In this document: one piece after another, positions 18,578 to 24,013 of the stretch
How positions within the stretch are numbered: the stretch's first letter is position 1
Layout: every line of letters starts with the position of its first letter
Assembly: GCA_030668875.1 (NCBI GenBank)
Contig: DAOVER010000020.1
Span: forward strand, 26,530 to 58,529
Source of the DNA: Candidatus Heimdallarchaeota archaeon
GTDB lineage: Archaea; Asgardarchaeota; Heimdallarchaeia; Heimdallarchaeales; Heimdallarchaeaceae
Reading direction: 5' to 3'
DNA length: 32,000 bases
The notes under the pieces: generated by a model
The model's input: the letters and a program-made list of their open reading frames with translations, nothing else
The model's database searches: none
What the model was told of the DNA's origin: nothing
Translations under genes and position numbers: made by a program

Positions 18578-18803
18578 TAAAAACAAGTGAGATACTTGTA
18601 TAATTTTTCTTCTTCTTATTTTTCCTTAATTACAAAGCTTCAAATCAAATATTACAAGACATAGGAGTAGTAAAAACCAAACCTATGGGAATGATTAATC
18701 TAGGAGAAAAAGTAGGTTTGTGGAAGAGATTATTTAGACGATATAAACACAATTAATTTTCCCTCTATAGAACATAAAAAGAAAAAAAAGATAATAGTAT
18801 TTT

Positions 18804-20162
18804 TTAATCTCTTTTCTCTTTATATCTTCTAGGCATGCTTGCTGCTGCTCCAGTCATATCATTACCTGGATCTCTGGGATAAGGAGATAGTCCTCCACCT
18901 CTACCTGATACAGAGCTTGAAAAATCTCTGCCATTGCCATCTTTTAGATTATCATGTTCAATTACTTGGTAAATATCTGCAGAACTCTTTAGTCGTGAAT
19001 AGATATATTTGAAATCTGACACAAAGATAGAAAGAAAGGAAAGCCAACTAGTATCCCCAAAATCATCATAAATCTGATAGGTTCTAATAAAAGGAACTTT
19101 TTTGTAAAATTCCACTAATTCAGATTTAGATACTATTACCACTTGAAGTAAATCGGGATTTTCTACAACCATGCAAGGTCGGATGATTTTATCTTCAACT
19201 AATCTGGATTTTAGCCTAAACAATGTTCTAGCTGAAACATCGTGTGATTCTGCAATGGTTTTGATGTCGGGTCGTTTGAAATCAAGTTCACAATTACGTA
19301 AGAGATGAGATAGATAAGGTTGTTTTTCTGAAGAAACAGTTCTTAGTCCAGTGACTCTAACAGAATCAGAGAGCTTCTTTTGCTTGATAAGGGGTTGTTT
19401 CTTCCAATTGTGAACTGATATTCCTTTGTTCAAGATGTCAGGGTTAAAGTACTTTTTCTTTTCTTTAACATAGTAGAAAGAAGGACCATGTTTTTTTCGC
19501 GTCATTATCCCATGAGTGATTTTCAACTCCGGAAAGAGCTGATAACTATCAATAGGTATGGTATTATCTCCAAAATCAATAGAGCGATTAAAAGCGAAAA
19601 ATTCATGTAAATTAAGTGACCTGTAGGAAATCAAACTACCTAGATAAATGCCACGAGAATTCAGGTGTTTTAATGTCAAACTAACCTTTTTCTCGGAGAT
19701 GCCCAAATCCTTAGCTAGTTGGTTATAAAAGAAAGAAGGAGTTTCCCCAAGAATTTCAATTATCTTTTTTTCTAAAAAGCTTAAATTTAATCCATAGCAT
19801 GTACTGTAAAACGTTTGCTCAAAATACTTGATAACGTTGCTTAAAGTCATATCTCGAGAATATATGACATCATGCAACTTTCTCAATTCCGCCCAGAAAT
19901 TCCTGTAATTCACAAATCGCCAAAATTCATTAGAGTTGATTTTATTATTGCTAAAAAAGTATCTATTAAAGGTGTCTGTAATCTTTGATTTCACTCCAGA
20001 AGAGAACTTGGGAAAACTGGAACCGAAGAGATCTGCAACTTTCGTTTTAGAGAAATGACCAATGGATAAACGAAAATCACTAGCTTCAATAGTTCCATCA
20101 AGTAAAGAGGAAATTAGTGTTGATTCTTTTTCATCGAATATGACGATTTTCTTGTTTTCCAT
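18804..20162 (-). CDS. Large Lrp/AsnC-like regulator with two winged-HTH modules and a low-complexity C-terminal tail
   Basis: HTH1 LEKKIIEILGETPSFFYNQLAKDLGISEKKVSLTLKHL; HTH2 RPDIKTIAESHDVSARTLFRLKSRLVEDKII; tail GRGGGLSPYPRDPGNDMTGAAAS. Confidence 0.65.
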   Translation of the reverse strand: MENKKIVIFDEKESTLISSLLDGTIEASDFRLSIGHFSKTKVADLFGSSFPKFSSGVKSKITDTFNRYFFSNNKINSNEFWRFVNYRNFWAELRKLHDVIYSRDMTLSNVIKYFEQTFYSTCYGLNLSFLEKKIIEILGETPSFFYNQLAKDLGISEKKVSLTLKHLNSRGIYLGSLISYRSLNLHEFFAFNRSIDFGDNTIPIDSYQLFPELKITHGIMTRKKHGPSFYYVKEKKKYFNPDILNKGISVHNWKKQPLIKQKKLSDSVRVTGLRTVSSEKQPYLSHLLRNCELDFKRPDIKTIAESHDVSARTLFRLKSRLVEDKIIRPCMVVENPDLLQVVIVSKSELVEFYKKVPFIRTYQIYDDFGDTSWLSFLSIFVSDFKYIYSRLKSSADIYQVIEHDNLKDGNGRDFSSSVSGRGGGLSPYPRDPGNDMTGAAASMPRRYKEKRD

Positions 20163-20441
20163 TAACTATCCTATATCTATTAGGTACTATGCTATTTAAT
20201 GATTATCATGGGAAAAATTAGCTACTATCATAAAATAATTTAAAAGAAGTATCCGTTATATTAAGTTTTCAAAAAATGTTACTAACAACTTTTGAAAGAA
20301 AGAAACATGAAGTATGATGAAAAACGAGTAAGATGGTAGACAATAATCCCAACAAATTATTTTCAACTGTTGAACCTTCTAACCATAGGTGTGTCTACTT
20401 ACCATAAAGTGGTTGTTCTGCTTGAACTGTTTTTTTAATAG

Positions 20442-20553
20442 AGAGCAAATTTGGGGATTTACTCTGCTTGTTATTTAGCTGGTGGAGCTGGTGGATGAAG
20501 CTCAACAGCTAAGCAGTTTTTCCAATGAAGTGTAAATTTGGGGAATTACACTT
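20442..20553. ncRNA. Putative structured RNA: three hairpins, two sharing a GGGG/CCCC loop motif
   Basis: Stems 20442-20465, 20475-20512, 20528-20553; AAATTTGGGGA(T/A)TTAC at 20447 and 20534 (15/16 identical). Confidence 0.4.
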
Positions 20554-20561
20554 TTCCCATC

Positions 20562-21914
20562 TTATGGTGTGGTTGCAGTTGTATTTCCATTACTAATGTG
20601 TTTATACAGATATGATCCGTTTCCGTTTCCGTTTCCATTGTTACTTCCATATTCAGAAGGAAGATGCTTATTTAGCTGAATCTCTCCAAAACTATTATTC
20701 TTTAGTTTCTTATCAATGCTAGCTAAAACGTTATTGTATAACCAATCTTCATCTATTTTCCAGTATTTGGTGTCCCAACTGAAGTTTTCCATATAGAAAG
20801 GCCACCACATACCGTGTTTGCCAAAGAAGTCGAGTGAGCTAATGGTATAGTCTTTGAAAGTATTCCAAATGATATAATTCAATTTTGTATCGTAATAAGG
20901 TGGAATAGTAAATCTCAAGAAAATGCCATCGTTTAGAAGCTCAAAGCCTGTTTGGAAGGGTGGATCTTCTTCATGCAGAAGTCTAAACAATTGCGCTTTT
21001 TCCTTATTAGGGACATTTCTTATGAGAAATGCTCGAGTAACATGTTGTTCAAAGAGTTTTCTACTGAAATTCCATCTGGGGTTGGTGATAAGATGGTTGC
21101 GAACAACATTGTAGTATTTACGACCAAAATCTACTTTCACATTATGTTCATTACGTGTATCAAAGAATTCGCTTAGATTATTGAAATAGTAACTTTCTGT
21201 ATCAGTTAGCTTTATCTTCTTTCCTAGGTGTTGATAATATTGTCTATAGTGATGTATGAGATCTGTTTGTTTAGTTCTTAAACCGATCTCGTGACCATTC
21301 TTAGTATAGGTAGTAAGATCTCGTAGAAGTAGTATGTGGAGTGGTTCCAGAGAGTCTAATTTTACAGGAGAGGGTAATCTAGGCAAGTCTTCACTCTTTT
21401 CTTCGCGTTTTTGCCAATATGCGACTAGATTGAATATTTCAGGATCTTTTGTATAGTTTGGTAATGGTTCAGGTTTGTTAACCCTATACCCAGTTGCTTT
21501 ATCGACTGTATAGGACTCACAATATTCTTGCTCAACTAAATAGTCTAGATATTTAATAAATAGACCTTTAGCTTCTTCTGGTAAATCAAATACAGCAACC
21601 ATGCCAAATTTTTCTCCATAAAAACGATTGTAGCTTCTAATGTAATCAAAAGAAGAAAGTGCCATCTGTAAGAGAGTAAACTGGTGGAGTTCTGAGATAT
21701 TCATTGTTACAAGATATCTTGTAAGATGTATTCTCTCAGGAACAAATGATGCGATGGGATGATATAGAATTCCTTTCTCTTTTAATGCATTGACGCGCCT
21801 TATCATTGTTTGTGGCGAAATGTTTAGCTTTTGTGCTAATGTGGAAAAAGTTTCGTCTGGATAGTGTTGCAAAACCAATAAGATTTTTCTGTCAAGTATG
21901 TTTAATTGATCCAT
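20562..21914 (-). CDS. Large Lrp/AsnC-family regulator (wHTH plus RAM-like domain, degenerate second module)
   Basis: LDRKILLVLQHYPDETFSTLAQKLNISPQTMIRRVNALKEKGIL is a classic AsnC HTH. The C-terminal (NG)n tail is encoded by (CCGTTT)3 at 20617-20634. Confidence 0.75.
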   Translation of the reverse strand: MDQLNILDRKILLVLQHYPDETFSTLAQKLNISPQTMIRRVNALKEKGILYHPIASFVPERIHLTRYLVTMNISELHQFTLLQMALSSFDYIRSYNRFYGEKFGMVAVFDLPEEAKGLFIKYLDYLVEQEYCESYTVDKATGYRVNKPEPLPNYTKDPEIFNLVAYWQKREEKSEDLPRLPSPVKLDSLEPLHILLLRDLTTYTKNGHEIGLRTKQTDLIHHYRQYYQHLGKKIKLTDTESYYFNNLSEFFDTRNEHNVKVDFGRKYYNVVRNHLITNPRWNFSRKLFEQHVTRAFLIRNVPNKEKAQLFRLLHEEDPPFQTGFELLNDGIFLRFTIPPYYDTKLNYIIWNTFKDYTISSLDFFGKHGMWWPFYMENFSWDTKYWKIDEDWLYNNVLASIDKKLKNNSFGEIQLNKHLPSEYGSNNGNGNGNGSYLYKHISNGNTTATTP

Positions 21915-21958
21915 TTTCTATTCTCCGATTTGTGTTCTTGGATTATTGATGAGAGGTG

Positions 21959-22273
21959 TTTCCAGAAGCAAACTGGAAATAGTAGGGAGATCTGATAAGA
22001 GACAAATGTTTAGAGACCTGGTGAGGAAACTTCGATTTGCCTCATTTTCAGAACTCTTACTAGACCTCGAATTTTGTTTTACGGATAATTGATATCCGCG
22101 GTTTGACCCCTTGCTTGTAAGTTCAATTTATGGTGGATGTACCACCTAACCTCAAATGAAAAACCGTTGCGGGTCTATGACCTCTCTAAGACCCAAGGTT
22201 TTCCTTTCTCGCCGAGAAATTGAGGAAAGGGGGTGGGGTTTTTCTGGCGATCGTGATTTTTTTTATTTTTTTT
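21959..22273. ncRNA. Putative large structured RNA/leader (at least six hairpins) ending in a T-tract on the + strand
   Basis: Stems at 21959-21979, 22022-22044, 22083-22097, 22132-22146, 22171-22194, 22201-22227; long-range pairing 22051-22060/22117-22124; T-run 22257-22273. Confidence 0.45.
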
Positions 22274-22532
22274 AATTAGATATTTGTCCGACAGGTTGAT
22301 CGATTTCTCCATTGACTGGATCTTTGTAGATTTGTCCGACAGGTTGATCGATTTCCCCATTGACTGGATCTCTAACCAGATCGATAGTGTATTCAGAAGT
22401 ATGAACTCCTTTACTATCAATGAATTGATATTCAATTTTATCAAAGTTGGATGTGTTTAGAGCAACTGTGCTCGCAATTACAGCAACTACGCTTAATACT
22501 ATTATAACACCAAATATTTTTTTCGCTTTCAT
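22272..22532 (-). CDS. Small secreted precursor with signal peptide and tandem 16-aa C-terminal repeat
   Basis: MKAKK plus hydrophobic h-region; ends RDPVNGEIDQPVGQIYKDPVNGEIDQPVGQISN; GGTGGA RBS 8 nt upstream and TATA-like TTAAATA. Confidence 0.8.
   Translation of the reverse strand: MKAKKIFGVIIVLSVVAVIASTVALNTSNFDKIEYQFIDSKGVHTSEYTIDLVRDPVNGEIDQPVGQIYKDPVNGEIDQPVGQISN
22282..22371. repeat. Tandem repeat, 2 x 42 bp with 48-bp period, inside the peptide gene
   Basis: 22282-22323 vs 22330-22371, 41/42 identical; the only difference is synonymous (GGA/GGG, Gly) in the 86-aa frame. Confidence 0.95.
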
Positions 22533-22564
22533 TTTGCTTATCCACCAGCTAAATTGAGCTTGTT

Positions 22565-22604
22565 TTACGATTTCTCACGTACTATTTAAGATTTGTTACG
22601 ATTT
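22565..22604 (-). promoter_or_regulatory. Promoter of the peptide gene with direct repeats flanking the TATA box
   Basis: TTACGATTT at 22565-22573 and 22596-22604 (31-bp period) around CTTAAATA (minus strand, 22590-22583). Confidence 0.45.
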
Positions 22605-22840
22605 TCCATTTTCTAGCATTTTTTGGAAAAAAGTAACAAACATATGCCTTACTAAAGGTTCGTTCCTCAATCTATGAATTTATGTCGGAAAATAGTATTA
22701 CTTAGATGATTGTCTAAGTGTAAGGCAACATATGCGTTGGTTTACTTATTTTATAAATAACGAGCTATATGACCGCAATATGTGGGCAATACTGATTACA
22801 CGAAAATTGAGTTTTCTAAAAGAATTGTAGATGATTCTTA

Positions 22841-24013
22841 TTAGGTTTTATAGTGTTTTTTCTTAAGAGCAAATACTAAAGCGCAAAAACTTAATGGAAA
22901 AATTATTGAAATTAATGTGATTGAAGTGCGATTAATATAACCTTCTTCTGACGCCTTAATTATATAATCAGCTGCTAATTCCCTAAATGGAAAATCGCTT
23001 TCATCTAAACTTGAAGTGAACACAGCAACAATATCGTGCTGTGGAATAACCATAATTATTTGTCCTGCCCAACCTAGAGCTAAGTAGGCATCAATTAGGG
23101 GAAATACCTACCATTGATATCCATAATCTGTTCTATCCGATAAATAGATTTTTCCTTCTGAAGCTTGACTGACCCACTCCTCTGAAACAATTTGAGTATC
23201 ATTCCATGTACCGTTATTTAGAAACAAATATCCGCGTTTAGCCATATCTTTTGGCAATAGCTGTAAGCCACTTCAACCGAAGCAAATATCTTGGGGATCT
23301 TCTTCCCAAAAATAACTAGAGAAACCAAGTTTTGAAAAGATATGAGTACTTGCATAACCAAGTGTGGAAATGCCTGTTGCATTTTCAATGATAGCAGATA
23401 AGAGATGTGATCCGCCCGAATTATATTTCCATGTATTTCCTGGTTCGTCTTCCATCGCTTGATTAAGTACGAATTCAACCCAATTAGAACTATCAACCAG
23501 TTGTCTGAAAGTATTTGCAGAATCATAATAAGATATATCTTCATTCCAAGAAATTCCTGAAGTCATGGTTAACAGATGTTCGATGGTTATGTTTTCCTTA
23601 TTTTCTATGTTTGGCACATCAATGTGTCTCAAGAAATCTAGAATTTTCTGATCTACGCTCTCAATATATCCTTCTTCTATAGCTCTACCTATCAGGGTTG
23701 AAGTGAAGCTCTTCGTAACTGAATATACTGGATGTAACGTTTCTGAACTAAATGTTAAATACTCCTCAACGACCAGATAACCGTCTTTTACTATGAGAAC
23801 ACTGTCTACCGCATAATTGTTCTCTTCAATATATTCAAACATTTCAACAATTCTTTCTTCATTCATTCCTGCTTCTTCAAAAGTGGAATGTTGCCATCCA
23901 TCAGTCGGCCAATAGTCTCTCTCAAGACTGCTCTCAGATAATATTATTTGAGTGTTTGATAAAGAAACAATAAACATCATAATTATACAGATAGTGAAAT
24001 ATCTTTTTTTCAA
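22841..24013 (-). pseudogene. Secreted serine hydrolase (beta-lactamase/6-aminohexanoate-dimer-hydrolase-like), disrupted
   Basis: SVTK (SxxK), LLTMTSG and YNS motifs. One 391-codon frame with internal TGA 23273-23275 (..CFG*SGL) and TAG 23108-23110 (GYQW*VF), continuing to LGWAGQ and a C-terminal TM. Confidence 0.9.

Follow-up and report, generated by a model that had tools for sequence, protein, structure and literature searches.

How does a gene for a small exported peptide come to stand beside genes for putative regulators in an Asgard archaeon, and which of these neighbors work together? Asgard archaea are the closest known relatives of eukaryotes, and the question is raised by a locus of a Candidatus Heimdallarchaeota archaeon (Heimdallarchaeaceae; 3.2-Mb genome, 99 contigs) that lies in a 32,000-nucleotide (nt) stretch of contig DAOVER010000020.1, here called the window. 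Three open reading frames (ORFs) share one orientation on the minus strand and encode proteins of 86, 450 and 452 amino acids (aa) (Table 1). The spacers measure 357 nt between the 86-aa and 450-aa genes and 399 nt between the 450-aa and 452-aa genes. A preliminary description read all three genes as a peptide-signaling system, with structured spacers, repeats at the peptide promoter and a broken serine hydrolase gene directly upstream; all of these elements are present in the sequence. Our analysis narrows the unit to three parts. We put at roughly 55% the probability that the locus is a conserved module in which a local double-Lrp transcription factor and an RNA acting in cis control an exported motif protein. 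The exported repeat-peptide gene, the structured RNA and the double-Lrp gene always occur together in one genus, which makes them a good candidate, as yet unproven, for archaeal gene control linked to a peptide. The broken hydrolase gene is a bystander, and so is the 452-aa gene.

The constancy of this grouping was surveyed in all 46 genomes of the order. Orthologous regulators, with at least 53% identity to the 450-aa protein, are encoded in 17 of these genomes, all from one Heimdallarchaeaceae genus, and a search for loci over all GTDB species returned the same 17 Heimdall loci only. The 450-aa protein has 25 homologs, and all those with a source name belong to Heimdallarchaeaceae. Every context of the 450-aa family that was fetched contains a small co-oriented ORF about 350–390 nt upstream, and every orthologous locus with enough upstream sequence has an ORF with a signal peptide and 2–7 repeats; one locus runs off its contig end within the repeats, and two have assembly gaps there. 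The expected small secreted ORF with variable C-terminal repeats was found beside the regulator in every assessable 450-aa-family locus, and the paralogs described below have a single copy of the motif.

The 86-aa protein has the form of a secreted repeat precursor, as had been proposed. It consists of a basic start (MKAKK), a hydrophobic segment of ~20 residues, a spacer of ~25 aa and two 16-aa repeats, and Pfam and NCBIfam contain no family for it. The DNA of the two repeats shows one synonymous difference up to the last codons; this two-copy 48-nt repeat was read directly from the sequence, and Tandem Repeats Finder gave no report of a two-copy repeat. The repeat units of the orthologous precursors, such as GPVTDEPIGNSMLPGGA in five copies, GPVEDVPIGYSPGGA in 2.6 and KGPDDGQTDTPLQGITD in three, are nearly identical inside one gene and strongly different among species, with the core D-x-P-[ILV]-G kept. 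Processing at basic residues, which had been suggested for the window, is possible in its clade, where such residues surround the repeats, but the other clades have no basic residues between the repeats. In two public assemblies (L006:4254-4508 and the upstream ORF of L036), runs of N break up the repeats of the peptide gene, and the contig of L026 stops inside the repeats, so that repeat numbers in metagenome-assembled genomes may be too low.

Four other genera encode distant relatives of the regulator (29–44% identity), and the window genome has one as its second copy. At ten paralog loci and at this second copy, a co-oriented gene upstream encodes a signal-peptide protein, of ~150 aa in most cases, and these secreted partners have no Pfam family. 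They end in one motif, for example FDPPGGSGDEPIGGGVSP or FDPPGGDPDYPIGGGVDPGP (pattern FDPPGG..DEPIGGG), which is recognizably the repeat unit of the small peptides. Since the motif is common to the paralog proteins and the small peptides, the association between an exported motif protein and a double-Lrp gene dates far back in the family. In the genus of the window, the exported partner has shrunk to a signal peptide and a multiplied motif. A word-based search with the secreted partner of one paralog returned two near-identical proteins only. The second module of the window genome (L050, G000:C94 1494-3715) comprises genes for a 152-aa secreted protein ending in the motif and, after 40 nt, a 414-aa double-Lrp paralog, followed by an overlapping gene for a 133-aa protein that looks like a CheY-type receiver domain. 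At another paralog locus (L051, G002:C39 1727-5166), two double-Lrp paralogs flank one secreted motif protein, all co-oriented.

Residues 4–50 of the 450-aa protein match the Pfam families HTH_24 (40.3 bits, cut-off 21.9; E = 2e-10) and HTH_AsnC-type (32.4 bits, cut-off 27), which corresponds to the N-terminal AsnC-type winged helix-turn-helix (HTH) of Lrp/AsnC regulators. AlphaFold2 (AF2) models built on homolog alignments, with a mean predicted local distance difference test (pLDDT) value of 82 for the 450-aa protein and 75 for the 452-aa protein, contain two HTH-plus-strand/helix units each, and the predicted HTH with its beta-alpha-beta-beta-alpha-beta unit fits the solved members of the Lrp/AsnC family. 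For the 450-aa model, the top Foldseek match is the siroheme decarboxylase NirDL (4ch7; E = 7e-9 over 409 columns), followed by many Lrp/AsnC regulators, whose whole chains align to the model with template-modeling (TM) scores by target of 0.6–0.7; the strand–helix pattern is seen in the AF2 models. These matches make the term 'double-Lrp' valid at the level of predicted fold. The earlier claim of two double-Lrp proteins stands in this sense, with NirDL as the top match of both, but not by sequence, as the Pfam RAM model (AsnC_trans_reg) matches neither protein at E values up to 1. The 450-aa and 452-aa proteins are not close relatives; 60 HTH residues align between them with 27% identity. Typical Lrp/AsnC regulators have ~150 aa with one HTH and RAM unit and form dimers or octamers, whereas both proteins of the window have ~450 aa and two units per chain. 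The 450-aa protein differs further by its C-terminus (20562-20690, minus strand), where it has, like all its orthologs, a disordered Asn/Gly-rich linker and then a conserved tail, S-Y-L-x-K-H-I-x-N-G-N; linker and tail have pLDDT values below 50. Leads from atlas look-alikes suggest that AsnC-HTH proteins of 350–415 aa also occur in other archaeal phyla.

A candidate site for the regulator is found at the peptide promoter, where operator-like repeats had been reported. The inverted repeat has 17-nt arms that are 88% complementary, is kept in 15 of 15 aligned orthologous promoters and is the sole such site in the genome, which bears out the report. It is placed immediately upstream of the TTAAATA box, a putative promoter element of the peptide gene. 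The promoter alignment shows unusually strong conservation across 260 nt upstream of the peptide gene, and GCTGGTGGA in the ribosome-binding region is unchanged in all 15 orthologs. The paralog modules have a related inverted repeat, TTCCA-N15-17-TGGAA, which brackets their TATA box. Were these promoters bound by the adjacent double-Lrp proteins, operator-like symmetry kept across paralogous modules would be expected. It is nothing unusual for Lrp/AsnC regulators to adjoin their targets, and the 450-aa protein resembles them in adjoining its likely target gene with an inverted repeat at the promoter.

The third part of the module is a structured RNA element in the first spacer. A covariance model (R1), built from the four closest sequences and then realigned, gives a 233-bit match of 192 nt in the window. 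It finds one full-length match per orthologous locus, on the gene strand and always between the two genes; exactly one copy per genome is present, in the same 17 of the 46 genomes that have the orthologous regulator, and no match occurs in the paralog loci or anywhere outside the module across the surveyed genomes. The blocks CGCCAGAAA, CCCCACCCC, CAAGGGGTCAAACC and GAGGTCTA, of 9–14 nt and flanking a long hairpin, are invariant though the regulators are only ~55% identical. Between them, each lineage forms the same hairpin from different sequence; plain MAFFT misaligned this variable hairpin, and RNAalifold on that alignment gave little. In the model-based alignment, the main hairpin shows changes on both sides in 12 of its 14 pairs, and 93–94% of cells are paired. 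The covariation score of the whole structure was reached by none of 500 shuffles, the paired fraction falls from 89% to 37–62% in slid controls, and the many G-U pairs are compatible with the gene strand only. Rfam has no family match in the whole window at gathering scores, and relaxed filters over 20100-22900 gave chance-level matches only (E = 3.8 and 6.2).

The best reading of this RNA is probably a cis-acting leader or attenuator between the peptide and regulator genes. It resembles attenuators and riboswitch-like leaders as a conserved structured element upstream of a gene, with a covarying hairpin followed by a U-run, and its C-rich tracts could pair with purine-rich (GAGG) segments. 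Unlike known cis-acting leader RNAs, it has no Rfam match and is located between two genes in an archaeon. A coding explanation of the first spacer was rejected. Overlapping ORFs do translate an invariant block, but orthologs differ by indels whose lengths are not divisible by three, and the hairpin covaries. The sequence of a short ORF with an MGSL start after GAGGTCTA is not conserved, and the clade of the window lacks this ORF. Spacers of the paralog modules in other genera contain hairpin-plus-U-run elements and a shared 5' motif, TYACGMT..CAGAA..ACCC. The spacers of genus g2 (L033, L034 and L043) measure ~340 nt and fold at about -103 kcal/mol; they contain a unit repeated three times, in which a short hairpin (TTAGAC..GTCTAA) leads into ACACCCAC and then a long hairpin, and may be a triplicated relative of the window RNA. 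About 60–130 nt upstream of the regulator start, a long hairpin or inverted repeat whose arms resemble CTTGTACAAG is present in many orthologs outside the clade of the window (for example L023, L025 and L022), with a compensatory change (CAGGA/TCCTG) in one lineage; the clade of the window is without this hairpin.

From these parts we infer DNA binding, a direction of control and an RNA action, which could be combined as follows. The exported protein or peptide bears an acidic, Pro/Gly-rich motif, PGG..D-E-P-I-G. The two HTH units of the double-Lrp protein would recognize the TTCCA-N15-17-TGGAA repeat at the adjacent exported-peptide promoter, and binding at this repeat would control that gene. 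The intergenic RNA, with its hairpin and U-run amid invariant C-rich and GAGGUC blocks, may act in cis as a leader or attenuator and set the amount of transcription or translation that continues from the peptide gene into that of the regulator. Several observations weigh against this proposal. Since the top match by fold, NirDL, is an enzyme rather than a regulator, DNA binding is not proved by the fold alone. The alignment behind the covariation was fitted to the model, and it comes from closely related genomes, which makes the statistics exaggerate independence; moreover, covariation is confined to the main hairpin, and the long-range pairings fall on invariant bases. Three paralog modules have just ~50 nt between the genes, which leaves no space for an RNA, and thus the RNA is not essential to the gene pairing. 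Finally, archaeal termination requires oligo-T alone, so that the attenuator idea rests on analogy.

Peptide signaling would extend the module reading rather than exclude it. Here the exported precursor would be cut, and motif peptides would be re-imported, bind between the RAM-like domains and alter DNA binding in an autoinducer loop. We regard this as unlikely, although double-Lrp genes are strictly and deeply paired with motif-bearing exported proteins, and the repeats, near-identical per precursor and fast-diverging among species, behave like those of multi-copy pheromone precursors. In known Lrp proteins, the RAM domains bind amino acids at the interfaces between subunits; in the clade of the window, the repeats have basic residues on their flanks; and a gene for a family-5 solute-binding (oligopeptide-type) protein adjoins the module in two contexts. 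Most clades, however, lack basic or other obvious cleavage sites between the repeats, the motif of the paralogs is the tail of a folded ~150-aa protein and not a free peptide, and no transporter or protease is a conserved neighbor across the related loci examined. A complex prediction from the regulator alignment and peptide residues 50–86 scored 0.01 and was weighed neither for nor against binding. The full form of the idea, self-signaling in Heimdallarchaeia by a processed motif peptide sensed by a double-Lrp receptor, with the RNA tuning the ratio of signal to receptor, appears quite unlikely. Its nearest models are the RRNPP systems of Bacillota (Rap-Phr, NprR-NprX, PlcR-PapR and Rgg-SHP), in which, as at this locus, a small exported precursor gene with a fast-evolving signal region lies beside the gene of a cytoplasmic regulator. 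The present locus differs from these in the Lrp-like fold of the putative receptor, in which no tetratricopeptide repeat (TPR) was found, in the tandem-repeat precursor, the archaeal host and the structured RNA between the genes, and in having no conserved Opp neighbor. The precursor also resembles yeast alpha-factor and fungal Kex2-processed precursors, since near-identical units, with basic bounds in the clade of the window, stand in tandem after a signal peptide; unlike in these precursors, no dibasic sites are present, and the single motif of the paralogs ends a folded domain.

The fold match to NirDL raises another explanation, in which the double-Lrp protein is an enzyme or chaperone, like NirDL or AhbAB, that acts on the precursor before export, with the repeats serving as multiple substrate cores like those of ribosomally synthesized and post-translationally modified peptides (RiPPs). 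Among solved proteins, NirDL alone has two Lrp-like units joined in one chain, and the tandem near-identical units of the precursor recall multi-core RiPP precursors. Sequence identity is 11–14%, however, and the NCBIfam model Siroheme_Dcarb_AhbA gives 16.7 bits against a cut-off of 140. The window and the related loci contain no genes of the haem d1 or alternative haem pathways and no RiPP tailoring families, and the precursor has at its N-terminus a hydrophobic segment of the secretion type rather than a leader peptide. The conserved operator-like repeat at the neighboring promoter points instead to DNA binding, and an enzymatic role seems very improbable. The RNA, for its part, might be an independent small RNA gene, or the terminator and 3' end of the peptide mRNA, with no regulatory tie to the double-Lrp gene; its adjacency to that gene would then be synteny inherited within one genus. 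An A/T-rich stretch before the element and the hairpin and U-run inside it would suit this explanation, its C-rich loops may resemble the seed regions of trans-acting small RNAs, and shared ancestry alone could keep the order, as all 17 genomes belong to one genus. Yet the invariance of the blocks beside regulators that have diverged so far indicates constraint far beyond the needs of a terminator, structured spacers with the shared 5' motif recur in the paralog modules of other genera, and the element was found outside the module in none of the genomes surveyed. We consider this origin distinctly improbable.

The novelty of this locus lies in the strictness of the three-part module, in the class of RNA, in the exported partner with its multiplied motif and in the candidate operator; a full-text literature search found nothing on a module of peptide, RNA and double-Lrp protein. 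To our knowledge, few regulatory RNAs are known in Asgard archaea, and we know of no description of peptide-based cell-to-cell signaling in archaea. Even on the conservative reading, the locus adds a new class of structured RNA from Asgard archaea, a fused double-Lrp protein family that has a candidate DNA site, and a case in which a secreted protein has shrunk to its own C-terminal motif in tandem copies. If peptide signaling were true, the locus would be the first archaeal peptide autoinducer circuit and would give the Lrp fold a new class of ligand. A guess from a single genome has become a defined unit, with an operator-like repeat at 22592-22640 and a 192-nt RNA with a supported hairpin, and the 17 genomes offer, as a natural series, peptide variants that each have their own regulator, in addition to the older paralog pairs.

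Table 1. Features of the locus, in window coordinates.
Feature	Position	Strand	Basis
Lineage-specific 1.6-kb insertion with the 452-aa gene (coding sequence 18804-20162)	18762..20375	-	Missing between matching flanks in L009
Conserved 3' region of the regulator gene	20376..20561	-	Repeat search; kept in the clade of the window; homologous to downstream sequence of L009
Twin hairpins with CCCCAA loops	20429-20465, 20516-20552	-	Repeat search
Two tandem copies of TCCACCAGCT in the regulator 3' region	20477-20495	+	10-mer counts
450-aa tandem double-Lrp/AsnC-fold protein, likely local transcription factor	20562..21914	-	Pfam HTH; AF2 and Foldseek
Conserved structured RNA element with blocks CGCCAGAAA, CCCCACCCC, CAAGGGGTCAAACC and GAGGTCTA	22061..22252	-	Covariance model
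Main covarying hairpin, GAGGUCA-containing loop, then U-run	22158..22204	-	Covariation
86-aa exported repeat-peptide precursor	22272..22532	-	ORF; orthologs in every related locus
Two 16-aa repeats of the precursor	22323-22370, 22275-22322	-	Read from sequence
Invariant AGCTGGTGGA in the ribosome-binding region of the peptide gene	22541..22550	-	Promoter alignment
TATA-like box TTAAATA of the peptide gene (putative)	22583..22589	-	Conserved column block in promoter alignment
Operator-like inverted repeat, GTTACnnTTTTCCA - 15 nt - TGGAAAAnnGTAAC	22592..22640	-	Repeat search; promoter alignment
Beta-lactamase-fold serine hydrolase pseudogene, signal peptide and C-terminal membrane anchor	22853..24004	-	Pfam Beta-lactamase, E = 1.7e-26

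The 452-aa regulator had been counted as a component of the system, and this part of the proposal falls. Its gene is carried by the lineage-specific insertion, and no other orthologous locus examined has a gene of this type. The coding sequence shows 81% DNA identity, limited to the coding region, to a canonical copy on contig C9 of the window genome (protein identity 78%), which lies in an operon of a 354-aa gene, a 440-aa gene and an RPA-like gene (L017, 4499-9043). The usual home of this family (~428 aa; L011-L014 and L017) is a conserved operon of three genes, between the 354-aa gene, whose product has no Pfam family, and a ~706-aa RPA-like gene with several OB folds, which suggests a role tied to DNA replication or repair. 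As a lineage-specific copy of a gene from the RPA-like operon, the 452-aa gene is not a member of the module. The 452-aa protein has sub-threshold Pfam HTH matches only (residues 131–172 and 300–323), and its AF2 model, which has an extra helical N-terminus of ~120 residues, matches NirDL first in Foldseek (E = 2.6e-7) and then Lrp/AsnC regulators.

The serine hydrolase also drops out as a component, since it is not conserved beside the module and its stops differ in two genomes. Compared with an intact 390-aa homolog, the gene can be aligned in a single frame from 24004 to 22853, which means that no frameshift is present; it contains two in-frame stops, TGA after ..ICFG and TAG after ..GYQW. 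The ortholog in the nearest relative (L009:541-1683) has one stop at a different position. Either the gene may have decayed independently in two genomes, or the stops may be recoded. No tRNA or tmRNA gene lies within the window. A search for sequencing runs returned DNA runs from marine sediment, probably the source of the assembly, and none of RNA.

The second spacer, between the 450-aa and 452-aa genes, belongs partly to the insertion and partly to the conserved 3' region of the regulator gene itself. The 10-mer TCCACCAGCT in this region and the invariant 10-mer at the ribosome-binding site of the peptide gene are exact reverse complements of each other. The window contains three matches to the 10-mer against 0.03 expected, and the genome contains 14, three of them in the module locus. 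Relatives of the same clade have 2–3 copies, and in other clades hairpin loops read UUCCACCA. The shared 10-mer could serve RNA–RNA pairing between the peptide and regulator messages, or it could be a shared protein site.

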